DNA from: Candidatus Tayloriibacteriota bacterium
GTDB taxonomy: Bacteria; Patescibacteriota; Minisyncoccia; Phycocordibacterales; SIBU01
Direction of reading: 5' to 3'
Assembly: GCA_009695005.1 (NCBI GenBank)
Contig: SIBU01000002.1
Coordinates: forward strand, 7,274 to 71,273
DNA: 64,000 bases
In this document: piece by piece, positions 19,565 through 40,112 of the stretch
Numbering within the stretch: the stretch's first letter is position 1
How the letters are laid out: every line of letters begins with the position of its first letter
Program-made: the position numbers and the translations under genes
The notes under the pieces: generated by a model
Database searches by the model: none
What the model saw: the letters and a program-made list of their open reading frames with translations, nothing else
What the model was told of the DNA's origin: nothing

Positions 19565-19566
19565 GA

Positions 19567-20556: not shown

Positions 20557-21283
20557 TATTTTTATTGCGAATAAAATTTGCAGTTTCAAGCAAACTGTCA
20601 AACGTGCCTATATCGAACCATTCTTTTTTTAAAAAGATACCATGAAGTTTGCCATCCTTGATATATTGCTTGTTTATGTCGGTAATTTCGTACTCACCTC
20701 TCTCTGATGCTTTGAGACTTAAACATTTCTTAAAAACTGTACTGTCATACATATAAACACCGGTCACAGCGTAATTGGTCTTTGGTTTGGTTGGTTTTTC
20801 ATCAATATCTAGAATCTTGCTGTTTTGTCCAAGTGTAGCAATGCCGAATCTTTCAGGGTCCGCTACTTCTTTTAGAAACACCGTCGCTCCACTTTTGAAT
20901 TTTTTTATGTGTGGTGTTAGGTCGTCTTCAAAAATATTGTCGCCAAGATACAGCACACAGTTATCATTACCGATGTAATCTTTGGCGATCCATAAGCCGT
21001 AAGCAATGCCATTGGGCTGGTTTTGGATACCGTAGACAATTTGTATTTGCTTGCCGGTGCGTTTTGACATGAAATCAGCCCCTGAACCGAGAAGTTTAAC
21101 CATAGATTCGATTGCTTCAGGTGAAGTGACAATCATGATTCGGTCGATTCCAGCGTCTACAAGTTTTTTGACCGCGTAATAGATTACAGGCTTATCATAT
21201 AGAGCAAGTAGATGTTTGTTGGTAGAAACGGTTAAAGGACGAAGTCTGGTTCCACCACCTCCGGCGAGTATAATCCCTTTCAT
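20537..21283 (-). CDS. rmlA: Glucose-1-phosphate thymidylyltransferase-like sugar nucleotidyltransferase
   Basis: MKGIILAGGGGTRLRPLTVSTNKHLLALYDKPVIYY matches the RmlA N-terminus (MKGIILAGGSGTRLYP...IYDKPMIYY). ORF-track start is TTG (21337); the canonical ATG (MKGII) at 21283 is used. Confidence 0.6.
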   Translation of the reverse strand: MKGIILAGGGGTRLRPLTVSTNKHLLALYDKPVIYYAVKKLVDAGIDRIMIVTSPEAIESMVKLLGSGADFMSKRTGKQIQIVYGIQNQPNGIAYGLWIAKDYIGNDNCVLYLGDNIFEDDLTPHIKKFKSGATVFLKEVADPERFGIATLGQNSKILDIDEKPTKPKTNYAVTGVYMYDSTVFKKCLSLKASERGEYEITDINKQYIKDGKLHGIFLKKEWFDIGTFDSLLETANFIRNKNNDNKKK

Positions 21284-21468
21284 TTGCTTGTTATTTGACA
21301 TGAGGGTAATCATAACGACATTTGAAAACTGTGTCAAAGAAAAGGTCCTTGATTTGGGCGGTAATTATTCTCTTGTTTTAGCGGTTTAATTAAGGGCTGA
21401 AACCCTTGGTCCATTTCACCTAAACCACTCTATTTACACTCCTAAGCGGTACCGCTATAATTCGAATT

Positions 21469-22635: not shown

Positions 22636-23779
22636 GCTTTTTCTTGTTTTCCATGGACGTTTCCCGAGCGAGAAAGCCGCTGCATTATTTGTAGCGAAAA
22701 GTGCTGAGGCGTTTGCAGAGAAAACTTGCGAGGTTATTCTGCTTGTTCCTAGACGGTTCGGGAGGGCGTCAAAGCCTGCCCGTGAATTTTACGGATTAAA
22801 AAATAATTTTAAGATTGTTTTTTTGCCGACCATTGATTTTTTTCCGTTTCCAGTTTTGAGAAAGCTTGCTTTTTATATAAGTTATATTTCATTTTCAATC
22901 ATTACATTTATCTATTTAATTTTACGTGCCAAACGTCATGACACCATTTACTCCAACGAAGCCTTACCCGTTCTTTTGGCCTCATTTATCCTTCCGAAAA
23001 CTGTATACGAAATTCACGATTTTCCTAAAGAGAATTTTTTTTACCGAAAGATTTTTTCCAAGGTGAGTAAGTTTGTTGTTACTAATGTTTGGAAATCTGA
23101 AAAACTACAGAAGATATTTTCAGTATCACGGGACAGAATAATAGCTGAACAAAATGCGGTCTCTTTGCTTGATTTTAAAACCACATTAAGTACTCTTGAG
23201 GCAAGATCTACGCTTAAACTTTCTATTGATGCAACAATCATCACTTACGTCGGTAGTTTACGCACTATGGGTATGGAAAAGGGAATCGAGGTGGCATTAG
23301 AGGCGTTACTGTTACTCCCGGAAAAAGTTAAACTGCTCCTTGTTGGGGGAAGCCCAGAGGACGTCCTTTTTTATTCAAAGAAGGCAAAACAGCTTGAAAT
23401 TATTAATCGAGTTATTTTTACAGGTTTTGTGCCACACGAAAAGGTTCCACTTTATCTTTCCGCTTCTGATGTTTTGATTGCACCTTTTCCAAAAAACGAC
23501 CACTATGAGTTTTATATGTCTCCTATGAAAATATTTGAGTATATGGCCAGTGGCAGACCAATTGTAGCTTCGAATTTACAGTCTATTCGAGAAATTTTAT
23601 TAGGTGATTCAGCAGTCTTTGTTTTGCCCGGTAATGTTAAATCTTTGGCAGAAGGTGTCGTTGGTTTGTTGGATAATGGAGATGAAGCTTCCATTAAAAT
23701 AGCAAACGCCATGAAAGTTGTTCAGAATCATAGTTGGGAGGGGAGGGCGAAACGTATCCTTGATTTTATTTTGCACTAG
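22625..23779 (+). CDS. GT4 (GT-B) glycosyltransferase
   Basis: LLLVGGSPEDVLFY...VIFTGFVPHEKVPLYLSASDVLIAPF...KIFEYMASGRPIVASNL is the classic GT4 C-terminal domain. 11-bp overlap with the upstream gene. Confidence 0.6.
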   Translation: MKDKLFLVFHGRFPSEKAAALFVAKSAEAFAEKTCEVILLVPRRFGRASKPAREFYGLKNNFKIVFLPTIDFFPFPVLRKLAFYISYISFSIITFIYLILRAKRHDTIYSNEALPVLLASFILPKTVYEIHDFPKENFFYRKIFSKVSKFVVTNVWKSEKLQKIFSVSRDRIIAEQNAVSLLDFKTTLSTLEARSTLKLSIDATIITYVGSLRTMGMEKGIEVALEALLLLPEKVKLLLVGGSPEDVLFYSKKAKQLEIINRVIFTGFVPHEKVPLYLSASDVLIAPFPKNDHYEFYMSPMKIFEYMASGRPIVASNLQSIREILLGDSAVFVLPGNVKSLAEGVVGLLDNGDEASIKIANAMKVVQNHSWEGRAKRILDFILH

Positions 23780-24800
23780 ATAAAAAATAAAATTTAAATA
23801 TCCGTCCTATGGTTTTTAGGTCTATTTTAATCCAGCTTCGAATTATAGAATTCCAGAAAATTTTTTTTACTTTTTTACCGAGTTTCAACGAAAGTCTGCA
23901 ATAGGTGAGCCACTCTTGACTTAGAACTTTTTGCAAGGCTTTTTGGTTGTATACTTTACTGGTTTCATTGGCATTATCTATTTTCAAAAACCACTCAGAG
24001 ATTTTTAATAAATCCTCAGGACTTGAAAGTTTTCGGTACTGGCGGACGTTTTCATACAAAGCTTTTTCATCGGTAGATAGAGGTATACCAAGTTTTCCAA
24101 AAGCATCAGCACAGATACTGTCGCGTACCACTGCTTGTTTCTCAGGTGTTTTGTAACTTGCCTGGTCTTCATGAGTTCTGTAATAGAGTAGAACTTTCGG
24201 TATGTTGGCAATTTTCACCACCTTTGAAGCTCTGTACCAAAACTCGTAGTCTTCAGTGCGTTCAAGTGTTGGGTCATAACGTAGATTAAGTTCATTAAGT
24301 ATTTGTTTTCGCATCATCACCGTTGGATGGATCAGGGATGAATGAAAAAGTAGGCTTGCCCGGATTTCCTCATGGTTAAGAGGGTGGCGCATCGTTATAC
24401 CGGGATTTCTCCCGATAGTTTTGGCATAAGAACCCGCAATGGTAATTTCTTGATGTTCCTCCATAAACTTGATTTGGGTTTCAAATCTGTGAGGTAGTGA
24501 GATATCATCACTATCCATCCTGGCTATATATTCACCTTTTGAGAGGTCAATTCCATGGTTTAGGGCAGCGGGAAGATATGTCAAATTCGCATCACGTCTG
24601 ATGTGGTAGATACGAGAGTCTTTGAAATTACTGATAATTTCAAGACTTTCTGTGCTGGTGTTAGCCGAGCTTAAAATTATTAATTCAAAATTTGTATAAG
24701 TTTGTTTAAGGATGCTGTCTATTGCGTCTGTAAGAAAAGCCTCGCCGTTGTGGACTGGCATAATCACACTTATCAAGGGTAAACGTTTTGAATTAATCAT
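23766..24800 (-). CDS. GT2 glycosyltransferase
   Basis: ISVIMPVHNGEAFLTDAIDSILKQTYTNFELIIL and ARMDSDDISLPHRFE (DxD) motifs. ATG at 24800. 14-bp convergent overlap with the previous gene. Confidence 0.65.
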   Translation of the reverse strand: MINSKRLPLISVIMPVHNGEAFLTDAIDSILKQTYTNFELIILSSANTSTESLEIISNFKDSRIYHIRRDANLTYLPAALNHGIDLSKGEYIARMDSDDISLPHRFETQIKFMEEHQEITIAGSYAKTIGRNPGITMRHPLNHEEIRASLLFHSSLIHPTVMMRKQILNELNLRYDPTLERTEDYEFWYRASKVVKIANIPKVLLYYRTHEDQASYKTPEKQAVVRDSICADAFGKLGIPLSTDEKALYENVRQYRKLSSPEDLLKISEWFLKIDNANETSKVYNQKALQKVLSQEWLTYCRLSLKLGKKVKKIFWNSIIRSWIKIDLKTIGRIFKFYFLSSAK

Positions 24801-25777
24801 AAACTTGAGAAAATTATCTCAGAACCTTCGTGTGTGAAGGAAAAAGGGACCTCCCGTAATTTTGAAAGCGCCTTTCTTAATTTGGTTTGATTGGACCTTT
24901 CACAATAGAACAATAGAAAACCCCCTCCGCCAGCGCCCAGAAGTTTTCCGCCCGAAGCACCATTTTTTAAAGCTAGTTCGTAATAATTATTAATTTCGAC
25001 ATTTGAAACATTGTCAGCAATTGATTGTTTGAGCATCCAGCTGTCATGTAAAAGTTTACCGAAATTTTCTAAGTCATCAGATTCAAGTACGGTTTTCATG
25101 TGATGTGCCATTTCTACCATGTGCTCTAAGGTTGCAACAACTTCATTTGATTTTATGATATTTTCTTTTTGTTTTTCCAAAATATTGTTGGCGGATCTTG
25201 TAACTCCTGTATAAAAAAGCAATAGATTATTTTGAAGTTTCTCTAAGGTTTTTGGTTTTATTTTTACTTCTTCAACTGTGACTTTTCCGGAAGGCATAAA
25301 TTGGATGAAATTAATTCCACCAAAAGAGGCGGCGTATTGGTCTTGTTTTCCAATAGGTGATTTGAGATGCAAAATTTCTGTTCTGCAGGCTCGTTTGGCT
25401 AGTTCCTCTGGTGATATGGTTTTCTTTTGGTAAGCGGATACAAGATGATGTAACCCTACTGCAAATGAACTTGAAGACCCAAGACCAGTTTGGGCCGGTA
25501 TGTCTGCGATAACTTCTATTTCTACACCATTCACTTTGTACTCACTTAGGATACTACGGGCGATGTTGTTTTCGAGATCTTTAGGATGATCTACATCTTC
25601 GGTTTTTTTGTATTTTAGTAGGATTTTTTCCTTGTTGAAATTTGGATGTATGGCCAGATAAATGTATTTATTTATAGTTACACTTAAGACAGCCCCCTGG
25701 TGCTTGCTATAAAATTCCTGTTGATCTGAGCCGCCACCGGCGAAACTTACTCTAAATGGGGTACGGGTAATAATCAT
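24797..25777 (-). CDS. GHMP sugar kinase of the HddA/fucokinase type (COG2605)
   Basis: N-terminal IITRTPFRVSFAGGGSD (compare HddA PLRISFAGGGTD). PAQTGLGSSSSFAVGL is the GHMP ATP motif. 4-bp ATGA overlap with the downstream gene. Confidence 0.55.
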   Translation of the reverse strand: MIITRTPFRVSFAGGGSDQQEFYSKHQGAVLSVTINKYIYLAIHPNFNKEKILLKYKKTEDVDHPKDLENNIARSILSEYKVNGVEIEVIADIPAQTGLGSSSSFAVGLHHLVSAYQKKTISPEELAKRACRTEILHLKSPIGKQDQYAASFGGINFIQFMPSGKVTVEEVKIKPKTLEKLQNNLLLFYTGVTRSANNILEKQKENIIKSNEVVATLEHMVEMAHHMKTVLESDDLENFGKLLHDSWMLKQSIADNVSNVEINNYYELALKNGASGGKLLGAGGGGFLLFYCERSNQTKLRKALSKLREVPFSFTHEGSEIIFSSL

Positions 25778-25845
25778 GAGTGTAATTCTATAACTATATA
25801 AGTGAATGTCTAGTTACATACATAAAGAATATTAAGTTGTGACTT

Positions 25846-25878
25846 TAAAATAAAAAAAGACTCCTGAATGAGGAGTCT
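25846..25878 (-). terminator. Rho-independent terminator for GalT-like gene (8-bp stem agactcct/aggagtct, 5-nt loop, U-run on minus strand)
   Basis: Forward sequence is aaaataaaaaaagactcctgaatgaggagtct. On the minus strand the hairpin is followed by TTTTTTTATTTT, just downstream of the stop at 25886. Confidence 0.5.
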
Positions 25879-25885
25879 CTATGTA

Positions 25886-26764
25886 TCAACCTGGATCAAC
25901 TTGGAGTAGGTGGGCATGTGGGTGTGGCATGTTTTGACCACCAAAGGTGCCGGCGTGTATTCCAAATTGAACTGGAAGGTTGGGATATTTTCGTTCCCCG
26001 CACAAAACAAGAATCAATTCTAGAATTTCAGACAGCATCGGAAGAGGAAGGAGCTGTGTCTTTGTCTCGAGAGGGTTACTTTCCAGCCACCTTTTGTTCG
26101 GCACAATCATTTTGTGCCATGGGTGGGGGGTGCCTTGGTTATCGAAAACAATCAAATTATCTACATTAATCGGATTTAGCACTTCGCCTGAACAAAAACT
26201 GCAGGCCTGACTCGACAGATGAGTCAGATTACCCTCTCCCCAAGCACGCCTCATTTTTGTCCGTATCAGTTCCACACCGCACCTTGTGCCACCGCTCGTA
26301 ACTTGTTTTTCAAGATGAAGTTTGTGGTAGTCTGCCGTTTCTTTCACAAAGAATACTTGCCCGGCGCGAATACCACCGACGAGAGCTTTCCACCCTCCCT
26401 GTTTGTCCAGCAATAAATCACCGTCGGGTTCATCGGTGTCTGTGAGATAACGCCATGTGTCGATGTGAGGCCACGGCAAGGTGAACTTACCCATTCCGTA
26501 AGCCAGTTTGTCGAACTCGGTGAATCCCCAATGGTTTAGGATGGGTAAATAATAGGCCATCAATTTTCCGTCGGAGTTAATCGTTACCGATAGGAGAAAA
26601 GAAGGGCCGATTCCGGTGTTTGGATTCGCGAATTTTTTCTGACAAAGGTCAATCGTGTTCCATATCAGGACCACTAGATCATTAAGCATTTTCATTATCC
26701 GGGCTCCTTTTGTTGAATTTTCAGGCTGAAGACAGTTGGTTAATTTCTGCTTCAAATAATACAT
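25886..26764 (-). CDS. GalT-like HIT-superfamily sugar-1-phosphate nucleotidylyltransferase/phosphorylase (putative)
   Basis: CSFCSGE (CxxC Zn motif) and MPHPHAHLLQ (compare GalT HPHGQ). Size ~290 aa. GC-richer than flanks. Own terminator. Confidence 0.4.
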   Translation of the reverse strand: MYYLKQKLTNCLQPENSTKGARIMKMLNDLVVLIWNTIDLCQKKFANPNTGIGPSFLLSVTINSDGKLMAYYLPILNHWGFTEFDKLAYGMGKFTLPWPHIDTWRYLTDTDEPDGDLLLDKQGGWKALVGGIRAGQVFFVKETADYHKLHLEKQVTSGGTRCGVELIRTKMRRAWGEGNLTHLSSQACSFCSGEVLNPINVDNLIVFDNQGTPHPWHKMIVPNKRWLESNPLETKTQLLPLPMLSEILELILVLCGERKYPNLPVQFGIHAGTFGGQNMPHPHAHLLQVDPG

Positions 26765-26821
26765 ATTATTTTAAAAAAGTCAATACAAGTGACCAAGGAC
26801 GCTATATGTTAGTATGTGTTT

Positions 26822-27745
26822 ATGAAAATTATTGTGGTTACCGGTGGGGCTGGATTTATCGGTTCAAATACAGTTGAACTTCTTTGCGATTTGGGTTTCC
26901 ATGTGCGCGTGATTGACGATCTTTCTTTCGGTTATCGTGATTTTGTCGATCCTCGAGCGGAATTTACACAGGCGTCAATTGGAGACCGTGAAAAAGTTCT
27001 AAAAATTTTAAATGGCGCCGACGCCGTTATTCATTTTGCCGCTTCAAGCATTATCAAATTTTCAATTGAAAATCCAGCATTTTATATTCAAAATAATATT
27101 TTGAACGGCACGGTTTTACTTGAGGCCATGAGAGAAACGGGTGTGAAAAAAATTATCTTTTCTTCGTCTGCTTCGGTGTACGGGGAACCTGATCGTGTAC
27201 CAATTCAAGAGGGTGACTCTAAGCGCCCCTTGCAACCTTACGGAGCGACCAAACTTGCCTTTGAGGCCATTTTGTCTGCCTACTATAACTCCTATGGCAT
27301 CGAAAGCGTTTCATTGCGTTATTTCAACGCTTATGGCCCGCGCGACGAACAAAAACCTGCCACTCGCGCAGTTCCGATGTGGATTAAGGAAATACTTTCT
27401 GGAGAGACGGTGAAAACTTATTGGAAGGGGTCTCAAAGAAGGGATTACGTCTTTGTCAAAGATATTGCGAAGGCACATGTTGATGTACTGGATTTGAAGG
27501 GTTGTCATGTTTTTAACATCGGTTCGGGTGAAGGTGTTTTGATGAAGGATATTCTTTCAGAAATAATCTCTCTCACTGGTAAGAGTCCAACAGTAGAAGA
27601 TCAAGGTGAGCGGATGGGCGACCCTAAAATTCTTGTTGCTGATATTTCTTCAATTAAAAAGGCAGTTGGCTGGCAACCGAAGTTTAATTTACATGACGGC
27701 TTGTTAGAAACTGTCAGTTATTATAAAAAACGTTTGAATTTATGA
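26822..27745 (+). CDS. NAD-dependent sugar epimerase (GalE-like extended SDR)
   Basis: MKIIVVTGGAGFIGSN, SSSASVYGEP and YGATKLAFE (YxxxK). ORF-track GTG at 26816; ATG at 26822. Confidence 0.6.
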   Translation: MKIIVVTGGAGFIGSNTVELLCDLGFHVRVIDDLSFGYRDFVDPRAEFTQASIGDREKVLKILNGADAVIHFAASSIIKFSIENPAFYIQNNILNGTVLLEAMRETGVKKIIFSSSASVYGEPDRVPIQEGDSKRPLQPYGATKLAFEAILSAYYNSYGIESVSLRYFNAYGPRDEQKPATRAVPMWIKEILSGETVKTYWKGSQRRDYVFVKDIAKAHVDVLDLKGCHVFNIGSGEGVLMKDILSEIISLTGKSPTVEDQGERMGDPKILVADISSIKKAVGWQPKFNLHDGLLETVSYYKKRLNL

Positions 27746-28461
27746 AAGCCGTTATTTTGTGCGCCGGTTTAGGAACTCGTCTTTTGCCACTAACAAAAGA
27801 TATTCCAAAAGTTATGGTGGAGATTGGCGGTAAGCCACTTTTGCAACACCATATAGAATGGCTTGCAAAAGAGGGAATCCGGGAAATTGGTATCAATCTT
27901 TTTTATCTACCAGAGGTAGTGCCGAGTTATTTTGGTAACGGTTCAAAATTTGGAGTAAATATTCACTATTCTCATCAATCCACGCTTTCAGAAACCGCTA
28001 GTGGTTTTAAACGCTTTGAAAAATTTGCCGACGGCGAAAGATGCGTGGTTATTTATGGAGATAATATTTTTCAGCTTGATTTGAAAGATTTAGAATTGTT
28101 TCATGAAAAAAAGGGCGGTATCGCAACCATTACCTTGCGAGAATGGGAAAATCCTACAGCTAAAGGAATTGTTGAGATGGACAATAATTACCGAATTTTG
28201 AAATTTAAAGAAAAACCAAAAGCTGAAGAGGTAACCACTAATTTGGGCAACGCCGGCGTATATATATTTGAATCGAAACTGTTCGATTATATTCCGACAG
28301 ACAAGGACTATGATTTTGGTAAGGATATATTTCCAAAACTTCTTGAGGAGAATCAGAATCTTTATGGTTATCGTCTACATGGTTATCATCTAGATATCGG
28401 TACTCTCGAGATGCTGGAAAAGGCCCGTAAAGATTTCAATCAATATGAAGACCTCGTCTGA
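27742..28461 (+). CDS. Sugar-1-phosphate nucleotidylyltransferase, HddC/ManC-like (putative GDP-heptose or GDP-hexose pyrophosphorylase)
   Basis: MKAVILCAGLGTRLLPLTKDIPKVMVEIGGKPLL is the nucleotidyltransferase N-terminal motif. 239 aa. ATGA overlap with the epimerase gene. GmhB lies immediately downstream. Confidence 0.5.
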   Translation: MKAVILCAGLGTRLLPLTKDIPKVMVEIGGKPLLQHHIEWLAKEGIREIGINLFYLPEVVPSYFGNGSKFGVNIHYSHQSTLSETASGFKRFEKFADGERCVVIYGDNIFQLDLKDLELFHEKKGGIATITLREWENPTAKGIVEMDNNYRILKFKEKPKAEEVTTNLGNAGVYIFESKLFDYIPTDKDYDFGKDIFPKLLEENQNLYGYRLHGYHLDIGTLEMLEKARKDFNQYEDLV

Positions 28462-28960
28462 AAAAAAGTCAAAAAAAGCTGTGTTCTTCGACCGCGATGG
28501 TGTGTTGAATAAGAAAGCATCTGAGCATGATTATGTTAAAAAACATGAAGAATTTTTTTGGATAAATGGCGTTAAGGAATTGATTAAGAAAATTAACGAC
28601 CTTGGTTTTTTGGTTGTTGTAATTAGTAATCAGCGAGGAATTGCTAGAGGATTAGTGACTTCCGGATTTGTAGATGAACTTCACGCCAGAATGAACAGGG
28701 ATCTGGAGGAAATAGATGCTCATATTGATGGTTTCTATTATTGTCCTCATGATCACGAAGATAAATGTTTGTGTCGCAAGCCTAAGTCTGGAATGTTCTT
28801 GACCGCAGCTAAAGAACTAGATATTAATCTTTCGGAAAGCTTTGCTGTTGGAGATAGTGTTACGGACACTGAGGCAGCTCTTCTTGTGGATTGTACTCCG
28901 ATATTCGTGTTGACTGACAAACTTGATACAAAACTCGTGATGGGCAGTATTTTAAAATAA
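28445..28960 (+). CDS. gmhB: D,D-heptose 1,7-bisphosphate phosphatase-like HAD IIIA phosphatase
   Basis: AVFFDRDGVLN (HAD motif I), VVVISNQRG, and CPHDHEDKCLCRKPKSGMF (GmhB Zn-loop plus CxCRKP motif). Confidence 0.65.
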   Translation: MKTSSEKKSKKAVFFDRDGVLNKKASEHDYVKKHEEFFWINGVKELIKKINDLGFLVVVISNQRGIARGLVTSGFVDELHARMNRDLEEIDAHIDGFYYCPHDHEDKCLCRKPKSGMFLTAAKELDINLSESFAVGDSVTDTEAALLVDCTPIFVLTDKLDTKLVMGSILK

Positions 28961-28963
28961 TCC

Positions 28964-29815
28964 TTATAATTTAATCCATTCTGGTAGGGAAGGATTATCG
29001 TTTTTGGCGTCTTTTTTCCATACTTGAGGGGTGCAGACAATTTTTCCCGGATTTTTATTGAGCCACGCACCCCACCAGCTCATGGTCGAATTGGCGATGA
29101 TGTTGTGTTTGCAAAGACTCATGAGAGTCAGTTCTTCGGTGTCCGAAATTTCAGGCGAAGAGATGAAAGTTAAAGGATAATTTTTCGAAAAATTATCCTT
29201 TACCCAGAGGATATCGTCTGATGATATGAAGAAGTGAGCGTTCACAGCATAGTCTAGAATTTTTACTATCGCTTTTTCATAGTAGGTAAGAGGGAGAACG
29301 CCGTGAGTGTCGGCAATTTTTTTTATTGAAACATAGTCGCCGCGTCGGATGTGGAGACTGGTGGCGTTTGGTTCGGTTTTTATCCTCTCCGCCATTTCTA
29401 GCGCTTTTACTCCGAGTGGCCGTTTGAGTTCAAAATCCTTTCGAATGGTATTTTCGTTATTTTTGAAATAATTTTCATTCTGCCAATGACCATCAAAGTA
29501 ACCGTCATTTATTTTAAGTATTTGCGCATCAAATGTCTCTGATTTTTCAAAAATATATTTTTTCTGTGTTTCAGGAAAAATTTTTCCTAAAATTTTGATT
29601 AAAGGTCTGCTGTACGATGCAATTTCAGATGCCTCCGACTCCTCTGTGGATATATTAAAATTGTCCAACTGAAAAATACGTCCGCTTTGGTTTGGTCCCC
29701 TAAGATATGAGGAATCAATTTTAAACGGTACTTTATGCAGTAAGGAGAGGTTTCTTCCTAGGGCATACTGAAACATTTGATTGCCAAGCCCGCCGTATAT
29801 TTTCACAATTATCAT
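28964..29815 (-). CDS. GT11 alpha-1,2-fucosyltransferase (FutC/WbsJ-like)
   Basis: MIIVKIYGGLGNQMFQYALG, SLHIRRGDYV and NSTMSWWGAWL are GT11 motifs I-III. ORF ATG at 29851; the internal ATG at 29815 gives the canonical GT11 N-terminus. Confidence 0.7.
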   Translation of the reverse strand: MIIVKIYGGLGNQMFQYALGRNLSLLHKVPFKIDSSYLRGPNQSGRIFQLDNFNISTEESEASEIASYSRPLIKILGKIFPETQKKYIFEKSETFDAQILKINDGYFDGHWQNENYFKNNENTIRKDFELKRPLGVKALEMAERIKTEPNATSLHIRRGDYVSIKKIADTHGVLPLTYYEKAIVKILDYAVNAHFFISSDDILWVKDNFSKNYPLTFISSPEISDTEELTLMSLCKHNIIANSTMSWWGAWLNKNPGKIVCTPQVWKKDAKNDNPSLPEWIKL

Positions 29816-30012
29816 GCTTTGTAGTATATAGCTTTCGGCAAATGTTTCCAATTAGTATTCGCCAATATTCAACTATTAATTTTATGAAAATGTTGCTATT
29901 GAGCAGTAGGTTGTTAACTTTTTGCAATAAATCTTTTCACGGTTTTGAGTTGTTTGTTGACAGCGTTGAAGGAGAAGTCGTCTTTAAATATTTAAAGTGA
30001 CAATCTTTTTAT

Positions 30013-31113
30013 TTATTTGAACTTAAACTTATTGATTATTTCAATCACACTTTCAATTTCCTTGTCAGTCAGCTCTGGAAATATCGGTAAGGAGATGATT
30101 TTCTCGGAATCGTTTTCAGTGTTGAGTAAGGATCCATTTTTGTAACCAAGAAATTCGTAGGCTTTTTGAAGATGGACAGGGAAGGGGTAATGAATGCCAA
30201 AACCTATACTGTTCTTTTTTAGATGATCAATGAAGGATTCTCGTTTTGAGATCTTTACAACGAATAGATGGAAAACGTGAAGATTTCCGTTTCGGATTTT
30301 AGGTAATTCAATCTCAGGATTGTCTATTTTCGAGAGATATTGGTGTGCAATGAAGGCGCGTCTTTCGTTGTTCGAATCAAGTGTTGGTAGTTTTGTTCTG
30401 AGAATAGCGGCTTGAATTTCGTCAAGTCTACTATTGAAGCCCTCTATATTTGCAAAATAGGTTTCTTGCATACCATACACTCTAAGTTGTCTGCAGGTAG
30501 TGGCGTATTCTTTCGAATTAGTAAGAATCATCCCTCCATCGCCGTAAGCGCCAAGGTTTTTTGTGGGATAGAAACTGAAACAAGAAAGATCACCAAAACT
30601 TCCAGCTTTTTTGTCTCCCGCTTTCGATCCAGTGGCTTGAGCACAGTCTTCAACCACTTTAAGGCTGTGTTTGTTGGCGATTTTCATTATCTCGACCATA
30701 TCAGCTGTTTGTCCGTAAAGGTGAACGGGTAACAAAACTTTTGCTTTTCTTGTGATTGCGGCTTCAATTTTTCTTACGTCCATTAAAAAATATTCATCCG
30801 TATCGACAAATACAGGTGTTGCTCCTAGCTCACGAATAGCACTGATTGTTGGGGTCGCTGTGTTTGAGACTGTGATTACTTCGTCTCCGGTTCCTACCCC
30901 CAGGGTCTTTAAGGCTATTTTTATAGCATCAGTTCCGGAGTTAACTCCTATTCCATGTGTGGTGCCGATATACGAGGAGAATTCCTTTTCAAACTTATTT
31001 ACTTCTTCATCAAGCACAAATTTACCAGAGTTTAAGACTCTTTTTATGGCAGCATTCGTTTCTGCTTCGGTTTTTTTTACCAATCGTGTTGCGTCAAAAA
31101 AAGGGATTATCAT
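30013..31113 (-). CDS. DegT/DnrJ/EryC1-family PLP sugar aminotransferase (FdtB/QdtB-like)
   Basis: [15 protein letters not shown] (Lys retained) and [12 protein letters not shown]. Adjacent to an FdtA-like isomerase. Confidence 0.7.
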
Positions 31114-31526
31114 TTTTGTATTAGCTTTTTAAACTCCTCGTAATCACGAATATAGTCTTTTTCGTCATAGACTGTGTCGGCGAGGACGAGCAATATCGTA
31201 TTTTTTTTGAAATTTTTCATCTTGTGCCACAAATATGGTTCAAGAAGCAATCCTTCACTGAGTTTAGAAAGTGTAATTGTTAATTTCTCCTTTCCACTAT
31301 CTAATTCTACGTCGCATTCTCCTGTGATTACGATAAGAACTTGTCTCATTTTGTGGTGGGTATGGTCACCTCGCACATCACTTTCCTTCATGCCTTGAGT
31401 AATAAGAGTTTTTTTTACAACAAATGGAATTTCATTATCTTTCGGTCCGAATTGAATAGGTGTAAGTGTGCCGGTACTATTACTAAATGATGAAAAATTT
31501 ATTATTTTGTATAAAGTGTTTATCAC
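31110..31526 (-). CDS. NDP-4-keto-6-deoxyhexose 3,4-ketoisomerase, FdtA/QdtA-like cupin
   Basis: [11 protein letters not shown]...FVVKKT...VRGDHTHHK...[17 protein letters not shown] matches the FdtA pattern (tlTPIeF..RG.HAHK..Qvl...G). GTG start at 31526 is needed to keep the N-terminus. Confidence 0.5.
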
Positions 31527-31533
31527 GGTAGGG

Positions 31534-32475
31534 TTATTTATTTTTATAATTAAGAAGTTTTAAATATTCTGGCAAGTATTTTTCCAGAGAGGTTTTTGGT
31601 TTCCAACCGAGTTTTCTAGATTTGGATGAGTCGACTGAGTATCGAATATCTTGTCCAAGTCGGTTCTCGACGAATTCGTAAAGGTTTTCTGGTTTACCCA
31701 TGGCTTTCAGTACCATTTTCACAATTTCCAGGTTGGTAAACATTTCTCCAGAAGAAATATTATAAATTTCACCATTCAAACCCTTCTCCATCATAAGAAA
31801 AATTCCCTCACAGTTGTCCCCTGCGTATGTCCATTCACGTAGGTACGATCCGTCTCCGTGTACCGTCATTTTCTCGTTTTTTGTGGCCAGATTTACTGTT
31901 TTGGAGATAAGTTTTTCTGGGTATTGCCCATGGCCATAATTATTGCTTGATCGACAAATTTTAGCCTTTAATCCATAAGTTTTTACCCAGCCGGAAATGA
32001 GCATTTCTGCCGCAGCCTTGGCTGCTGAGTAAGGATTTTCAGGGTGAAGTTGGTCGTTTTCTTTGGCCGAAAATCCTTCTTGTATTTCGCCGTATACCTC
32101 GTCTGTGGAGATGTGAATGAGTGTCGGCCGGTCATTTGGATCCTTGGATCGTATTAGCTCTAGCAAATTGTAGACTCCTCGAATATTACTTTCAAAAAAT
32201 AGACCGTTTGATGTAATTGCATTGTCTACATGTGATTCGGCAGCGAAATTTACAAGATAATCAGCATTTTGAGGTAAATATCGTAAGGTGGCTATATCTT
32301 CACGAATAAGTTCGTATTCTGGATGAGCATCAAAATTGAGATCGTGCCTGGCAGCATAAGTCATTTTGTCGATATTGATGACGTGGTAGCCGTTCTTCAA
32401 AAGCAAATCAACAAAGTAGCTTCCAATGAAGCCCAATCCTCCTGTCACTATTACTCTTCTTTTGATTTCTGCCAT
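31534..32475 (-). CDS. rmlB: dTDP-glucose 4,6-dehydratase (second copy)
   Basis: VIVTGGLGFIGSYF, NFAAESHVDNAI, STDEVYG and YSAAKAAAE. Confidence 0.7.
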   Translation of the reverse strand: MAEIKRRVIVTGGLGFIGSYFVDLLLKNGYHVINIDKMTYAARHDLNFDAHPEYELIREDIATLRYLPQNADYLVNFAAESHVDNAITSNGLFFESNIRGVYNLLELIRSKDPNDRPTLIHISTDEVYGEIQEGFSAKENDQLHPENPYSAAKAAAEMLISGWVKTYGLKAKICRSSNNYGHGQYPEKLISKTVNLATKNEKMTVHGDGSYLREWTYAGDNCEGIFLMMEKGLNGEIYNISSGEMFTNLEIVKMVLKAMGKPENLYEFVENRLGQDIRYSVDSSKSRKLGWKPKTSLEKYLPEYLKLLNYKNK

Positions 32476-32479
32476 ATTT

Positions 32480-33499
32480 TTATGATTGTATCATTTTAAT
32501 AATCGGTGACAAAAGCTTCTTGGTTGCGCGTCGTGATGGATAGTGGAATGTATTGTGCCAGAATTCCCTGAGACTTTTTTTGAGGGGTGGCCGGGGAGTG
32601 AGGCCGTGCGACCATTGTGGGTCTACGTGTCGGATTTGGTCTAAAATCCGGTAGAGTGTCTTTGCGTAGGGTCTATAGATGAGGTCTTTGGCAGGGGACG
32701 TTTTGGTGTATTTGTGAAAGATGTCGGGACCATAGGGCAAAAGTGGAGTGGGAGGATAGAGCACGAATCCCGAGTAGTGAAAAAATATGAGCGGTGTGTC
32801 CCCGATGTAGACAACACCATTTTTCTTTGTAACCTCTTTGCCTTCCATGTTCCATGTTGCAACATTTGCGCCTTCATTTTGAAGTGGGTGAACACCCATG
32901 AACTTTTCTTCAAAAAAATCCAGATATTTTTGGTCGCCATAACGATTTGGTTCAATCCTGTCGAAGCACCATTCAAGACATCGGTCTTGCCACCAATGTA
33001 AACATGCGAGGCCGTTCTCGTCTTTTCTGAAAATTGGCAAACTGACGTTATATTTCCCAACCTCCTTTTCTTTGTCTTTTCTGGTCCAGAATAATCGGTG
33101 TGGAATTATAAGAATTGAATGATTTTCAAATTCTTTGTAAATGGTTTCTGGTGACGAGAAAAAATAAGTGTCAGCGTCGAGGTACGCTATCGATTCTATA
33201 TCGTTGCGTTCCATGACATACAGAGTAAGTACTGAAGATAATGTCCAGCAATACTCACGGTTGTTTCGGGTTTTTTTTGCATTTAACACAGCCTCGGTTT
33301 CGATATCTTGAAGTGAAAGAAGTAGAACATTTTCTAGATTTAATTTTTCAAGTGTGGTGCGAGTTTCTGTATCCATACATAAAATCCAAAGTGTAAAGTT
33401 TTCAGCATGTTTAACAAGCGATTCGTGAAGAGCCACGCCTTTTAGTAAGAAACCTTTGTCAAAAAGAGTGCAGAAGTGGTAAGGGCTTTTCTGGGTCAT
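32480..33499 (-). CDS. Putative GT-A-like glycosyltransferase (DxD: YLDADTYF)
   Basis: Soluble 339-aa protein with a DAD motif. Sits within a glycan operon. No confident family. Confidence 0.3.
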   Translation of the reverse strand: MTQKSPYHFCTLFDKGFLLKGVALHESLVKHAENFTLWILCMDTETRTTLEKLNLENVLLLSLQDIETEAVLNAKKTRNNREYCWTLSSVLTLYVMERNDIESIAYLDADTYFFSSPETIYKEFENHSILIIPHRLFWTRKDKEKEVGKYNVSLPIFRKDENGLACLHWWQDRCLEWCFDRIEPNRYGDQKYLDFFEEKFMGVHPLQNEGANVATWNMEGKEVTKKNGVVYIGDTPLIFFHYSGFVLYPPTPLLPYGPDIFHKYTKTSPAKDLIYRPYAKTLYRILDQIRHVDPQWSHGLTPRPPLKKSLREFWHNTFHYPSRRATKKLLSPIIKMIQS

Positions 33500-34452
33500 A
33501 AAATTTTTTTTACTGTATTTTTTAGCATTCTGATTATTTTTGCTCCTTTGTTTGTTCTTCGGTTGTATAATTCTATTTTGGTAGTAATTATTTTTGTCTC
33601 ATCTATAAGGTCCTTAAAAATAGGATCGTTAAATTTTTTGTCACCATTTGAAGCGATTTCAAAAGCAAATCCATATTGTTTTTTGATAGTGGCAAATACC
33701 CAAAGTAATAAATACTCTCTAGTACCGAAAGATTCCATGTTTCCTTTGTTTATGTAAGATATCTCTGTCCATCCTGGTGATTCGATAGTTGATGATCGAA
33801 GACTATTTCCCAGTTTAGTGTTGAATTTTTCGTAACCTAGGGGCATTTTTCTTGCACCAATAACTCTCATTGTGCTCATCCAGAAATCCATTTTTTCCAT
33901 AAATTGCATCACCTCCCAGGCCTTATCCTCATTTTCGTAAGCTTCAATAATTCCAGGTTCAAAGTCCGCGACAAGAGTTCCCTCCATTATGTCTTTTCCC
34001 AGACTTTTAAAAATTTTAAGGTCGGTTCCTTGAGAATCAGTTTTGAACCAATCGATTCTTGAAATGTTTTTTGAAATAATAACTCTTTTTAAATTTTCTG
34101 TTTTGAGTTTTACTTCATTTTCGACTTTAAATAATGGAGCAATTGTCCATCTAGAATCAATTTTTGGTTTAAGTGTGCTTGAACAAAACGGGGAAGCGGT
34201 TAGGTAAAAATTACTGACATCATTTTCCGATTCAGTAACTATAGAATTGTTAATGTAAAGTTCGCGGTAAGGCGAGGTTCCTTCCTTTAGGTGCTTCATT
34301 TCTCGTATGTCAGGGTCAAAGGCGATACAGATTGCGTATTTGGCGATCTCTTTCCAATGAGAATAAAGATCGCCCGAAGCGCCAATGTCTACAAGTACTG
34401 GTGGACGGTCCACTAAAGTGGTGTGGTTGAAAATTTTTTCAAAAATTTTCAT
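33496..34452 (-). CDS. FkbM-family SAM methyltransferase
   Basis: VLVDIGASGDLYS and FKTDSQGTDLKIFKSLG (compare FkbM iKiDvEGaE..vL.G). Confidence 0.45.
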   Translation of the reverse strand: MKIFEKIFNHTTLVDRPPVLVDIGASGDLYSHWKEIAKYAICIAFDPDIREMKHLKEGTSPYRELYINNSIVTESENDVSNFYLTASPFCSSTLKPKIDSRWTIAPLFKVENEVKLKTENLKRVIISKNISRIDWFKTDSQGTDLKIFKSLGKDIMEGTLVADFEPGIIEAYENEDKAWEVMQFMEKMDFWMSTMRVIGARKMPLGYEKFNTKLGNSLRSSTIESPGWTEISYINKGNMESFGTREYLLLWVFATIKKQYGFAFEIASNGDKKFNDPIFKDLIDETKIITTKIELYNRRTNKGAKIIRMLKNTVKKIL

Positions 34453-35273
34453 TTTCTTTTAAAAATAAAGCCTCTATCGTTCGCAACAGTATCGTTTAGT
34501 TGGATGGTTCCAGCTAGGGCGTCCCATTCCGCAATATATTCATATTTGTCGGCTAGGAATTTAATAAATTTTTCCTTGTTGAAAAACCAAGCCGGATAGC
34601 TTGAGTCGTATATTTTTGGAGCTACTTTTTGGATAGTTATTCTATCTGGGCCATTTGGAATAAACGAAATTCTATCAAAAATAATATATTTAAAATTTAA
34701 AGCGATAGTCTTCTCTAAAATTTCGTATGGTTTTTCAATGTACTGAAGTACGCTAGAGAAGAGAGCTGTATTTGGTGAGGTTTCTTTGAAACATCCCTCT
34801 GTAGATTCAAAGAATTTGAGAGTGTTATCCTCAAATTCTTTCTTACCGGTTCTTACGAAATTCTGTTGTTCTACTATACTCCATTGGATTTTCGATAGAT
34901 GGGCAAGCATTTTTTTATTTTGAAAATAAGAACTTCCCAATGATCCGCCGAAATCCATTAGGTTCAGTTGGTTTCCCTCTTGCGAGCTAATCCAAAGAAG
35001 GCTGGCCAGCAATGGCCACGAATATTCGGGAGTTGCAAAAGTTACAGAGTCACGTTCGAAGGCCACTTCTCCTAGTTTGGCCTTTGTGGCACCAATTCTC
35101 ACCTTTTCTAGAACCGTGCTTGTGTCATAGCCAGTGGAATTTTTCTGAGCCTCTTTCCATGTAGGAAAATTCCCAAAAAAACCGAAAGATGATTGACCAT
35201 TAAGTTTTTTAATAGTCCGAGTAATTGCTGGCGGTAGCCAATTCTTTGCTATCTTTCGTATTTTATTTTTCAT
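34449..35273 (-). CDS. Putative class I SAM methyltransferase
   Basis: LMDFGGSLGSSYF (DxGGxxG motif I-like) and an N-terminal WLPP segment. Confidence 0.35.
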   Translation of the reverse strand: MKNKIRKIAKNWLPPAITRTIKKLNGQSSFGFFGNFPTWKEAQKNSTGYDTSTVLEKVRIGATKAKLGEVAFERDSVTFATPEYSWPLLASLLWISSQEGNQLNLMDFGGSLGSSYFQNKKMLAHLSKIQWSIVEQQNFVRTGKKEFEDNTLKFFESTEGCFKETSPNTALFSSVLQYIEKPYEILEKTIALNFKYIIFDRISFIPNGPDRITIQKVAPKIYDSSYPAWFFNKEKFIKFLADKYEYIAEWDALAGTIQLNDTVANDRGFIFKRK

Positions 35274-36102
35274 TATTTTTTGTGATACCTAAGATGTCAT
35301 CTAAGTTTTTTCTAGGAAAGAGATCTAGAAGTCCTCCATCCGTGGCGTTCGTTATGGAAATGTGCTCTTTTTTTGCAAAACTTCTGATTGAACGGTATTT
35401 GTCCCATAAACTGGCGTAGGATGCGCATTCCGTTCCAAAATCGCTTTCAGACCACTCGTTGTATCCTTTTTGACTCAAGACACTTTCTTTCTCTTCGAAA
35501 AAATGTCTGCTTTCTCCAACGTGCAGAATCCAATCATGGTCAACACCTAAAAGATTAATTTCTTTAACTCCAAGATATATCGCTAAATAGATGGCGACAT
35601 GAGGGACGGTTTGTATTTCCGGAAGATCCTTTGTGAAATCAATTTTCTTGTCAATTGGTTTGATCCCAAGGTAATAATAATAAACATTTTGTTTCTTAAA
35701 GACTTGATATCTCTCGACAATATGTTTGTCAGACAATGAGATCATAACATTCTGATTTTCAGGAAAGTGTTTCTCTGCGTCTTTAAACATTTCCCCAAAT
35801 TGGTCCTCTGTAATTGGTGGATGAGAGGGGGTGAAAACATGGAAGAATGGTTTGATGATTTTAAAGTCAGGATGAACAAAGAAATTACTGACGCTTATTG
35901 AAATCTCACCAGAAAGTTTTGAAAGATCTTGTCTTTTGATCGACGGACCTGTTGCCAGCACAAAACAGCGCCTGTTCGAAAAAACATTTTTAAGTCCAAT
36001 ATTTTTTTGAAGGAGTTTTCCGTCTCTCATTCTTAAATATATACTGTATATGTTAACCAATTTCCTACCTAAAATTGGTATTTTTTTAATTCTTTCCTTC
36101 AT
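35263..36102 (-). CDS. DUF115/MptE-like protein (motility-accessory-factor-like; putative nonulosonic-acid transferase)
   Basis: CFVLATGPSIKRQDLSKL (the G.GPSL motif of DUF115). Directly downstream of the NeuB-like gene. ORF ATG at 36198 overlaps the NeuB gene by 95 bp; the internal ATG at 36102 (MKERIKK) leaves a 1-bp gap. Either is possible. Confidence 0.4.
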   Translation of the reverse strand: MKERIKKIPILGRKLVNIYSIYLRMRDGKLLQKNIGLKNVFSNRRCFVLATGPSIKRQDLSKLSGEISISVSNFFVHPDFKIIKPFFHVFTPSHPPITEDQFGEMFKDAEKHFPENQNVMISLSDKHIVERYQVFKKQNVYYYYLGIKPIDKKIDFTKDLPEIQTVPHVAIYLAIYLGVKEINLLGVDHDWILHVGESRHFFEEKESVLSQKGYNEWSESDFGTECASYASLWDKYRSIRSFAKKEHISITNATDGGLLDLFPRKNLDDILGITKNNEK

Positions 36103-36103
36103 T

Positions 36104-39015: not shown

Positions 39016-39016
39016 A

Positions 39017-40096: not shown

Positions 40097-40112
40097 TAAA
40101 TTGTGACTACGT

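Follow-up and report, generated by a model that had tools for sequence, protein, structure and literature searches.

Introduction

The closest described systems to the locus reported here are the O-polysaccharide clusters of E. coli O8/O9a and the slg clusters of Geobacillus and Paenibacillus, in which cytoplasmic GT-A and GT-B glycosyltransferases occur together with a Wzm/Wzt exporter and with many methyltransferases that are possible chain caps. The slg clusters additionally encode a Wzy_C-type O-oligosaccharyltransferase, WsaB/WsfB. For fucosyltransferases the points of reference are H. pylori FutC and E. coli WbsJ and WbgL (family GT11), H. pylori FucT and human FUT9 (GT10), and NodZ and FUT8 (GT23), all members of well-known families. 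To our knowledge, the characterised GT10 members are all GDP-fucose users, and so are the characterised GT11 members with the exception of one reported colitosyltransferase.

Bacteria of the candidate phyla radiation (CPR, Patescibacteria) are generally described with S-layers and pili, and as far as we know they are generally reported without LPS biosynthesis and an outer membrane. Patescibacteria genomes are rich in cell-surface modification genes, glycosyltransferases among them (PMC12911398). Our literature search on fucosyltransferases, GDP-fucose and glycosylation in Patescibacteria/Parcubacteria returned general statements of this kind on surface modification genes and nothing specific. 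Here we analyse a 64,000-nucleotide stretch of DNA (the window, meaning the whole stretch analysed) from a Ca. Taylorbacteria (Patescibacteria/CPR) genome; the window matches a metagenome-assembled genome (MAG) of this group at 100% identity. We consider it probable, at about 0.65, that it carries a large CPR surface-glycan locus in which fucosyltransferase-type enzymes act on a lipid-linked glycan that is exported by Wzm/Wzt and transferred by a Wzy_C protein.

Results and discussion

A very large glycan locus with predicted GDP-fucose chemistry

A single, very large locus for cell-surface glycan synthesis fills most of the window (Table 1). It occupies at least 54 kb and may continue past the left edge; on its other side, MurB and SecA genes follow from 55.8 kb. 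Pfam and NCBIfam models identified some 13 glycosyltransferases and genes for six or more nucleotide-sugar routes, along with a Wzm/Wzt pair and a Wzy_C protein. Three fucosyltransferase-type enzymes and the GDP-fucose pathway are encoded in the window, and no NCBIfam model names the GT10, GT11 or GT23-like protein. The layout is like that of the E. coli O8/O9a and slg clusters in its Wzm/Wzt pair, its cytoplasmic GT-A/GT-B enzymes and its many methyltransferases, and, as in slg clusters, a Wzy_C-domain protein lies next to the cluster. However, the locus exceeds these systems by far in size and encodes a wider range of sugars, its Wzy_C protein has a long TPR extension, its Wzt_C match is sub-threshold, and no initiating phosphoglycosyltransferase (PF00953, PF02397) was found within the window.

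Table 1. Features of the glycan locus, with positions in the window.
Feature	Position	Strand	Basis or annotation
Glycan locus, glycosyltransferases	791..54406	.	GT2 x4, GT4 x3, GT8-like, GT87, PMT_2, MptE-like
Glycan locus, sugar genes	791..54406	.	dTDP-hexose, RfbH-type, 2,3-dehydratase, FdtA/FdtB, HddA/GmhB-like, NeuB, cytidylyltransferase
Divergent GT23-like (NodZ/FUT8-type) putative glycosyltransferase, 388 aa	21469..22635	+	public record 'hypothetical'
GT11-family (alpha-1,2-fucosyltransferase-type) glycosyltransferase, 283 aa	28964..29815	-	PF01531, motifs
GT10-family (alpha-1,3/4-fucosyltransferase-type) glycosyltransferase, 359 aa	39017..40096	-	PF00852; public record 'hypothetical'
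Second Fcl-like SDR (paralog)	43003..43932	-	NF047922 243 bits, far under cutoff
Wzm/Wzt ABC exporter for lipid-linked glycan (Wzm 47990-48808, Wzt 46717-47985)	46717..48808	-	
fcl, GDP-L-fucose synthase	48819..49766	-	NF047922 E 2.4e-145, 483.7 bits
gmd, GDP-mannose 4,6-dehydratase	49787..50890	-	TIGR01472 578 bits vs cutoff 415; PF16363 E 2e-150
Wzy_C membrane protein (O-antigen-ligase/O-oligosaccharyltransferase-type) with C-terminal TPR repeats	52082..54406	+	PF04932, TPR families

The GT11 and GT10 proteins

An earlier note on this DNA had recognised GT11 and GT10 motifs in two of the proteins and had put forward HMM classification as one way to check them. Indeed, both proteins score well above the common cutoff of 23.9 bits, with 90.2 bits against PF01531 (E 1.8e-25) for GT11 and 65.1 bits against PF00852 (E 8.3e-18, aa 239-327) for GT10.

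The GT11 protein is complete and keeps all signature motifs. The N-terminal bacterial motif GGLGNQMFQYA lies at aa 8-18 (nt 29762-29794), motif I (HxRRGDY) reads HIRRGDY at aa 155-161, the SDD motif is FFISSDDILWVK at aa 195-206, and the S(W/F)SWW motif is NSTMSWWGAWLN at aa 242-253. The protein is 100% identical to MSU55013.1, recorded as 'alpha-1,2-fucosyltransferase [Ca. Taylorbacteria]'. A longer ORF beginning at a TTG and reaching to 29851 is unnecessary, since the public record starts, as we do, at the ATG at 29815. A PDB sequence search with the protein gave nothing meaningful. Like H. pylori FutC and E. coli WbsJ and WbgL, it is a soluble GT-B-type protein in the range of 280-300 aa which carries these same motifs and the PF01531 domain and sits in a polysaccharide locus that also holds gmd and fcl; unlike them, it comes from a CPR host, and its homologs across Patescibacteria, at 55-66% identity, are uncharacterised. 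The gene closes the same strand run that holds the GT10 gene.

In the GT10 protein the family motif is FALAYENMSGAKGYVTEKIF at aa 252-271, within which GYVTEK (aa 264-269; YVTEK at 265-269) aligns with the GYVTEK of H. pylori FucT, so that the donor-binding Tyr, Glu and Lys (Y246, E249 and K250 in H. pylori) are all present. Of these residues, E268 and K269 recur in 90% or more of 47 subfamily members, and the invariant E116 is a candidate for the catalytic Glu. PDB sequence matches were to H. pylori FucT, FUT9 and mango FUT13, and the same three enzymes were the best full-length matches of an AF2 model (pLDDT 93.5), Foldseek ranking 2nzw (H. pylori FucT, E 7.8e-11), 8d0o (FUT9) and 7yro at the top with TM 0.52-0.55 over about 400 columns. 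The predicted fold alone is not discriminating, because SenB and other GT-B enzymes score close behind. The protein has in common with H. pylori FucT and FUT9 the motif F..A/C.EN....GYVTEK, PIYWG and the two-domain GT-B fold. However, overall identity is 15-19%, and sequence likeness is confined to the GDP-fucose-binding C-terminal region (aa ~240-325); the N-terminal acceptor domain gave no significant PDB sequence match, either as a single sequence or as a 47-sequence profile. In contrast to H. pylori FucT, there are no heptad repeats at the C-terminus, nor an amphipathic tail or a phase-variable tract. The gene is one of 11 consecutive co-directional genes separated by no more than 16 nt. 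Its subfamily is distinct and occurs in 322 species genomes, mainly of Patescibacteria, Chlamydiae, Dependentiae, Omnitrophota and Bacteroidota.

The core of the locus recurs across Patescibacteria

We compared 84 loci, of which 80 are genome loci built around genes of this GT10 subfamily and 4 are metagenome context loci. The core gmd-fcl-wzm-wzt...GT10(+GT11) recurs across Patescibacteria. Within 10 kb of GT10, fcl is present in 30 of the 84 loci, gmd in 20 and wzm/wzt in 18/21; GT11 lies within the same distance in 14 of the 80 genome loci, and about 12 of these 14 belong to the patescibacterial set of some 22 loci. Two groundwater Taylorbacteria-like contigs (L003 and L005) are syntenic with the window at 36-51 kb with 61-85% identity, and they share the order gmd, fcl, wzm, wzt, transketolase pair, SDR, Fcl-like SDR, 314-aa protein, GT10 and NeuB fusion. 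The MAGs that carry the nearest relatives of both GT11 and GT10 are patescibacterial, and several come from groundwater or lakes. A recent transfer of the three fucosyltransferase-type genes from a host-associated bacterium was also considered and rejected, as their closest relatives are all Patescibacteria and the GC content of the locus (0.36-0.42) is the same as that of the flanks.

A third, GT23-like protein

For the third protein the earlier note had reported weaker FucT-superfamily motifs. The protein itself has no Pfam match at E < 0.01; below threshold lie NodZ (PF05830, E 0.18, 11 bits against 28.3) and FUT8_N_cat (PF19745, E 0.059, 12.6 bits against 27.6). A word-seeded homolog search returned only the protein itself, and HMMER was needed to reach the family, an exhaustive search giving 1345 remote homologs. 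Among 50 aligned relatives, Pfam NodZ is matched by 41 and FUT8_N_cat by 40, and the profile of these 50 finds NodZ (2hhc) with E 7.5e-26 and FUT8 with E of about 6e-17. Because this remote-homolog profile matches NodZ and FUT8, we class the protein as GT23-like, and the weaker motifs turn out to be real and, by family profile, of the GT23 (NodZ/FUT8) type. The profile aligns with both NodZ domains and with the FUT8 catalytic core, sharing the arginine of the GxH.R motif, ATD(D/E) and L.D..LLS..D.L....S. The window protein differs from NodZ and FUT8 in falling below the Pfam thresholds and in three substitutions, H208Y, D213N and D310N, and, unlike FUT8, it has no SH3 or coiled-coil part. A single-sequence AlphaFold model of the protein had a pLDDT of 34.7 and was left out of the fold search.

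The three substitutions fall at near-invariant positions and are rare or unique among the relatives, Y208, N213 and N310 each differing from 45-49 of the 50. By profile alignment, H208, D213 and D310 correspond to the donor-contacting HxRxxD and LxD motifs of FUT8, the contacting residues of which we take to be His363, Arg365, Asp368, Asp409, Asp453 and Ser469 (FUT8 numbering). Together with the missing above-threshold Pfam match, and with the rarity of family members near a GT10 gene (1 of 80 genome loci, and one close relative besides), these changes raise the possibility of a degenerate or non-fucosyl enzyme, either inactive or changed in nucleotide-sugar specificity, which would leave two working fucosyltransferases only. 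We hold this to be possible but doubtful, as the protein retains the invariant G94, N130, R210, D253 and S325, all three changes (H to Y, D to N) are conservative, and the same motif also varies in NodZ itself. Moreover, the reading frame is unbroken, and its overlap with the beginning of the next gene downstream, a GT4 gene starting at 22625, suggests that the two are co-expressed.

GDP-fucose and other possible donors

The canonical gmd-fcl pair that the earlier note had placed in this region is borne out by the gene models, the two genes being separated by 20 nt and the Fcl score lying just below the NF047922 cutoff of 500. In addition, the second Fcl-like SDR, kept at 76-78% identity in L003 and L005, is a possible alternative GDP-6-deoxyhexose epimerase/reductase by sequence. 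Thus, at least one of the three fucosyltransferase-type enzymes might use, in place of fucose, a different GDP-linked 6-deoxy sugar that the locus itself supplies. Possible donors include the product of this paralog, a branched sugar modified by the transketolase, and a (6-deoxy)heptose made by the HddA/GmhB/NTP-transferase/SDR set next to the GT11 gene. The score of 243 bits that the paralog reaches against the Fcl model would fit such a role, and the HddA-like and GmhB-like genes are present, as is the conserved pair of NTP-transferase (71%) and SDR (82%) genes that adjoins GT11 both in the window and in one further locus (L001). Moreover, in four loci that have no gmd within 10 kb (L018, L036, L023 and L022), GT10 is accompanied by the split transketolase pair, the SDR and the 314-aa protein. 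Nevertheless, we consider a donor of this kind rather unlikely: the canonical gmd-fcl pair is present and its GDP-fucose needs a consumer, and gmd/fcl accompany the same GT10 subfamily in many phyla. The association holds in eight loci outside Patescibacteria (L026, L029, L035, L042, L050, L064, L076 and L078), and it therefore supports GDP-fucose as the GT10 donor.

Export, final transfer and the nature of the envelope

The Wzm/Wzt pair matches PF01061 (54.4 bits) and PF00005 (75.8 bits), and is 84-86% and 67-76% identical in the syntenic loci L003, L005 and L006. The C-terminal domain of Wzt gives a weak match to PF14524 (Wzt_C, 29.1 bits against a cutoff of 30.4), which is also weak in L003 and is present in L004; matches of the pair to NCBIfam TagH/Wzt/Wzm-type models lie below the equivalog cutoffs. 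The Wzy_C-TPR protein scores 63.5 bits against PF04932 (cutoff 31.7), and homologs lie near a GT10 gene in L006 (65%), L007, L017 and L019. It is a candidate for the enzyme of final glycan transfer; its PDB search gave TPR matches only, which do not tell a WaaL-type from a PglL/WsaB-type enzyme.

In the pathway that we propose, Gmd and Fcl would convert GDP-mannose to GDP-L-fucose, and GT11, GT10 and the GT23-like protein, as inverting GT-B enzymes, would most likely attach fucose in alpha linkage, or a closely similar GDP-6-deoxy sugar, to a lipid-linked glycan built at the cytoplasmic face of the membrane. The locus would also supply dTDP-deoxy and amino sugars, a GDP-sugar of heptose or mannose type and a nonulosonic acid. 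Once complete, the chain would leave through Wzm/Wzt, and the adjacent Wzy_C-TPR protein would probably hand it to a surface acceptor.

A Wzm/Wzt pair with a Wzy_C-domain protein is also the classical O-polysaccharide layout, and the term 'outer membrane lipopolysaccharide' has been used loosely for Patescibacteria (PMC12911398). A conventional diderm O-antigen cluster, with WaaL-type ligation to lipid A-core, nevertheless appears quite improbable, since lipid A and core genes are absent from the window and the best score of the Wzt ATPase is to models of the teichoic-acid exporter TagH. It would also be at odds with CPR bacteria being generally reported without LPS biosynthesis and an outer membrane. 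As they are instead described with S-layers and pili, the closest analogy would be the pathway by which Gram-positive bacteria make S-layer or protein O-glycans with an ABC transporter, or else a polysaccharide anchored to the wall or to a lipid. Helicobacter LPS would be the less close comparison.

The question of Lewis antigens

From this set of enzymes the earlier note had also read a hint of Lewis b/y-type epitopes and possible host mimicry. Its parts list (GT11, GT10, a third FucT-superfamily protein and gmd/fcl) stands; the host-mimicry reading finds no support here. The reading supposes that alpha-1,2- and alpha-1,3/4-fucosyltransferases build Lewis b/y on LacNAc as on H. pylori LPS. 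The same family set of GT11, GT10 and gmd/fcl is indeed found in H. pylori, and the alpha-1,3-FucT of that species is the best structural match of the predicted GT10 model. However, Lewis antigens require a Gal-beta1,3/4-GlcNAc backbone, and among window ORFs of at least 150 aa there was no match to the LacNAc-building families GT25 (PF01755), GT31 (PF01762) or GT7. Besides the fucosyltransferase types, the glycosyltransferases in the window are only generic GT2, GT4, GT8-like and GT-C enzymes, of which GT2/GT4 enzymes may substitute for the LacNAc-building families. The acceptor domain of the GT10 protein is, by sequence, dissimilar to those of H. pylori FucT and FUT9, and fucose is just one of the at least six sugar routes in the locus.

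Helicobacter-like phase variation was likewise considered and rejected, as C/G runs stay shorter than 6 and A/T runs shorter than 9 throughout the three fucosyltransferase-type genes. The bacterium is an environmental CPR member whose closest loci are from groundwater and lake MAGs, and the GT10+GT11 pair is widespread in free-living or episymbiotic Patescibacteria. With the nearest relatives of both enzymes being Patescibacteria MAGs, several from such waters, nothing points to an animal host that could be mimicked. We therefore regard Lewis b/y mimicry as very improbable and see no pointer to blood-group mimicry; a predicted lipid-linked glycan carrying fucose or a related sugar, exported and transferred to the cell surface, remains our preferred reading.

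Implications

Two proteins recorded as 'hypothetical' can be upgraded in annotation, to a GT10 and a GT23-like enzyme respectively, and the GT10/GT11/gmd-fcl/Wzm-Wzt core is common to many Patescibacteria. The role of the glycan may lie in attachment to host microbes, in phage evasion, or in both. More speculatively, the module gmd-fcl-wzm-wzt-(split transketolase/SDR)-GT10(+GT11), together with the Wzy_C-TPR protein, might represent an ABC-transporter-dependent system, typical of the lineage, with which CPR bacteria that lack LPS glycosylate proteins or the cell wall. Such a system would occupy over 5% of a roughly 1-Mb genome and would make a fucose-rich, heavily decorated, strain-variable S-layer or pilus coat governing host-microbe attachment and phage recognition; this we offer tentatively. 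If the assignments hold, an ultra-small and metabolically reduced CPR bacterium spends at least 54 kb on an elaborate surface glycan that probably contains fucose, and surface glycans would constitute a major, still unstudied interface of CPR cells with host microbes and phages.

Results

The earlier note had read from this DNA a Lewis-antigen-like fucosylation toolkit consisting of GT11, GT10, a third protein with weaker fucosyltransferase-superfamily motifs, and gmd-fcl, and HMM classification bears out this enzyme set. The GT11 ORF spans 28964-29851(-), with a first ATG at 29815 that gives the 283-aa product delimited in that note. Its match to Glyco_transf_11 (PF01531; E 1.8e-25, 90.2 bits) lies above the gathering score of 23.9, and the bacterial GT11 motif set is complete: GGLGNQMFQYA (aa 8-18), HIRRGDY (aa 155-161), FFISSDDILWVK (aa 195-206) and NSTMSWWGAWLN (aa 242-253). 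The GT10 protein matches Glyco_transf_10 (PF00852; E 8.3e-18) and carries FALAYENMSGAKGYVTEKIF at aa 252-271. Its sequence alignment to H. pylori alpha-1,3-FucT (2nzw/5zoi), human FUT9 and mango FUT13 is confined to aa ~240-325. A Foldseek search of the PDB with its AlphaFold model (47 homologs as input; pLDDT 93.5, pTM 0.90) placed H. pylori FucT (E 7.8e-11) and FUT9 first, over ~400 columns at TM ~0.52-0.55; SenB and other GT-B enzymes ranked close behind, so the fold fits GT10 but is not discriminating alone.

The third protein had no Pfam match at E<0.01; a permissive threshold brought up solely FUT8_N_cat (E 0.059) and NodZ (E 0.18), a word-seeded search of 5.8 billion proteins returned the protein itself alone, and a single-sequence structure model (pLDDT 34.7) was too poor for use. 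Exhaustive HMMER searching retrieved 1345 relatives, 220 at E<1e-10 (best 44% identity, E 6e-73). In an alignment of 50 relatives, 41 matched NodZ and 40 FUT8_N_cat individually, and the alignment profile matched the sequence of the NodZ crystal structure across both domains (E 7.5e-26), FUT8 at ~6e-17 and POFUT1/2 weakly. The weak motifs are therefore real, and of GT23 (NodZ/FUT8) type. Compared with these 50, the protein keeps the invariant G94, N130, R210 and D253, as well as W132, S325 and N335, but has Y in place of near-invariant H208 and N in place of near-invariant D213 and D310; the changes at 208 and 310 are unique, whereas that at 213 occurs in 3 of the 50. In the profile-to-FUT8 alignment the three altered positions belong to GVH.R(R)TD and L.D..LS, motifs that contact the donor in FUT8. 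This GT23-like protein may be inactive or re-specialised.

At 100% identity, GT11, GT10 and the GT23-like protein match MSU55013.1, MSU55023.1 and MSU55005.1, respectively, from a Candidatus Taylorbacteria MAG, the latter two labelled 'hypothetical' in the public record. Window ORFs agree with the gene calls of the matching record (locus tags EXS46_00610, EXS46_00520; contig of 86,247 bp), and GC is uniform across the window (0.35-0.42). Close homologs of GT11 (55-66% identity) and GT10 (40-69%) come nearly all from Patescibacteria MAGs (Taylor-, Vogel-, Zambryski-, Pacei-, Nomura-, Magasanik-, Falkow- and Saccharibacteria), several of them from groundwater or lake samples.

Pfam and NCBIfam scans of all window ORFs of at least 150 aa outlined a single glycan locus at 0.8-54.4 kb, with MurB and SecA from 55.8 kb onward. 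Its nucleotide-sugar routes comprise the dTDP-glucose, RfbH-type, 2,3-dehydratase, C-methyltransferase, FdtA/FdtB, HddA-like, NeuB, PseF-like, gmd/fcl, Fcl-like and transketolase entries of the table. The GT10 gene belongs to a run of 11 genes on one strand, spaced by at most 16 nt; GT11 ends this strand run beyond a 197-nt gap, convergent with the HAD, NTP-transferase and SDR genes, and gmd-fcl-wzm-wzt-transketolase-SDR forms a second tight string.

Features of the glycan locus and its surroundings (window coordinates)
Coordinates (strand)	Feature	Remark
	GT2 (four, one with fused methyltransferase); GT4 (three)	glycan locus
	GT8-like protein	glycan locus
2200-3690(+), 3671-5176(-)	PMT_2 and GT87	GT-C-type membrane glycosyltransferases, left end of locus
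10620-11348	2,3-dehydratase	
12761-14137	C-methyltransferase	
15845-16654(+)	pyruvate-kinase barrel-domain ORF, 269 aa	mid-locus
16800-17351(+)	weak NUDIX ORF	mid-locus
17407-18639	RfbH-type 3-dehydrase	
20537-21337, 19567-20601, 31534-32475	dTDP-glucose synthesis and dehydration	
21469-22635(+)	GT23-like protein	glycan locus
24797-28960	HddA-like kinase, GmhB-like phosphatase, sugar-1-P nucleotidylyltransferase, SDR	
28964-29815(-)	GT11, 283 aa	glycan locus
30013-31526	FdtA/FdtB	
35263-36198(-)	MptE/DUF115-like protein	glycan locus
36104-38011(-)	NeuB fusion, 635 aa	
39017-40096(-)	GT10, 359 aa	glycan locus
40113-41057(-)	314-aa protein	unannotated
43003-43932	second Fcl-like SDR	
44054-45073(-)	SDR	
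45073-46754(-)	split transketolase pair	
46717-48808	Wzm/Wzt	export
48819-49766	fcl	
49787-50890	gmd	
51271-51954(+)	PseF-like cytidylyltransferase	
52082-54406(+)	Wzy_C + TPR protein, 774 aa	putative final transfer
61637-62239(+)	SET-domain (lysine methyltransferase-type) protein	downstream of secA

No initiating phosphoglycosyltransferase (PF00953 WecA/MraY-type or PF02397 WbaP-type) was found among ORFs of at least 150 aa in window 1-54400, against ~13 glycosyltransferases; the initiating enzyme must be encoded at another site or come from a family not yet recognised. The two GT-C enzymes imply extracytoplasmic glycosylation steps using polyprenyl-phosphate sugars. The NeuB fusion joins a nonulosonate synthase of NeuB type to a xylose-isomerase-like TIM barrel (74-76% identity in two groundwater relatives, L003 and L005); next to it lies the MptE/DUF115-like gene, with the PseF-like gene nearby, and the combination suggests that this CPR genome has a branch for a sialic-acid-like sugar. 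The Wzy_C-TPR protein, at the locus edge, is a membrane protein of O-antigen ligase/O-oligosaccharyltransferase type with a long C-terminal TPR array; a PDB search returned TPR matches alone, and four further patescibacterial loci have a homolog close to GT10. The pyruvate-kinase ORF looks truncated relative to normal enzymes, and the SET-domain gene sits beside a class I methyltransferase and a NUDIX hydrolase.

The contigs L003 (GT10 61% identical, tblastn) and L005 (Taylorbacteria) share synteny with ~36-51 kb of the window, in the order gmd, fcl, wzm, wzt, transketolase N and C, SDR, Fcl-like SDR, 314-aa protein, GT10 and NeuB fusion, at 61-85% identity. In the L003 relative, which the locus L001 overlaps, GT11 follows ~14.6 kb downstream with a GT23-like gene (37% identical) in between. 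Regions between conserved blocks differ among relatives, the pattern that a variable surface-antigen locus would be expected to show. The GT10 subfamily is present in 322 species-level genomes. Genes no more than 10 kb from GT10 were counted by tblastn in 84 loci (four of them metagenome context): fcl was present in 30, gmd in 20, wzm in 18, wzt in 21 and the two transketolase subunits in 16 and 14, respectively. Over the same distance, an HMM screen of the 80 genome loci detected GT11 in 14, ~12 of these among ~22 patescibacterial loci, and a GT23-like gene in a single Dependentiae genome. GT10, GT11, gmd/fcl and Wzm/Wzt thus form a recurrent patescibacterial module, and the triple combination is rare. 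On a Zambryskibacteria contig (JAPLZX010000006.1; L004/L014, 8071-18397) two different GT11 genes flank GT10, and the interval between the two also encodes a radical-SAM/B12 enzyme and a DUF268 methyltransferase, an example of how lineages reshuffle their set of fucosyltransferases.

As for the donor, the gmd assignment is unambiguous (TIGR01472, 578 bits, cutoff 415), and fcl scored 483.7 bits (E 2.4e-145) against the GDP-fucose synthase model, below its cutoff of 500; at family level these matches show Gmd and Fcl to be producers of GDP-L-fucose. The association of the GT10 subfamily with gmd/fcl also holds in non-patescibacterial phyla, which by association supports GDP-fucose as the GT10 donor. 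At least one of the three transferases may nonetheless use another GDP-sugar made by the locus, candidates being the products of the Fcl-like paralog, of the transketolase module, or of the heptose route, which abuts GT11 both in the window and in L001. The transketolase pair, SDR and 314-aa protein (weak methyltransferase-like matches) travel together beside GT10 in many loci, some of them outside the CPR (L018, L024, L036 Bacteroidota), and may constitute a module for two-carbon branching of an NDP-keto-sugar. The HddA-like set abuts GT11 and has a counterpart in L001 (10852-12532); its nucleotidyltransferase (71%) and SDR (82%) are better conserved in the closest relative than GT11 (63%), and the window showed no SIS/GmhA isomerase.

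Discussion

In the most likely model, Gmd and Fcl supply GDP-L-fucose, inverting GT-B transferases would attach alpha-fucose on the cytoplasmic side to a lipid-linked glycan, as known GT10, GT11 and GT23 mechanisms suggest, Wzm/Wzt would export the chain, and the Wzy_C-TPR protein would pass it to the final acceptor. In general, CPR bacteria are said to have no LPS and to bear S-layers and pili. The nearest functional analogy is therefore the Gram-positive ABC-transporter-dependent S-layer or protein O-glycan pathway, whose oligosaccharyltransferase is a Wzy_C-type enzyme. The alternative is a wall- or lipid-anchored polysaccharide.

The enzyme set of the earlier note stands; its reading of Lewis-type, possibly host-mimicking glycans, however, is very improbable. 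The small probability left to it stems from GT2 enzymes, which can form Gal-GlcNAc linkages. Against it, the organism is an environmental CPR bacterium, the LacNAc-building families GT25, GT31 and GT7 are absent among window ORFs of at least 150 aa, the transferase genes lack the Helicobacter hallmarks of homopolymer phase-variation tracts and C-terminal heptad repeats, the GT10 acceptor domain has no sequence relationship to Lewis-making enzymes detectable by single-sequence or profile PDB searches, and fucose is one of many sugars in the locus.

Patescibacteria carry many surface-modification genes thought to help attachment, as stated in general terms alone (PMC12911398), and our literature search found no paper on their fucosyltransferases. 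To conclude, these genes add members to enzyme families already known, and the cluster that holds them is likewise of a known kind; some added interest comes from their setting in, and conservation across, the poorly understood Patescibacteria.
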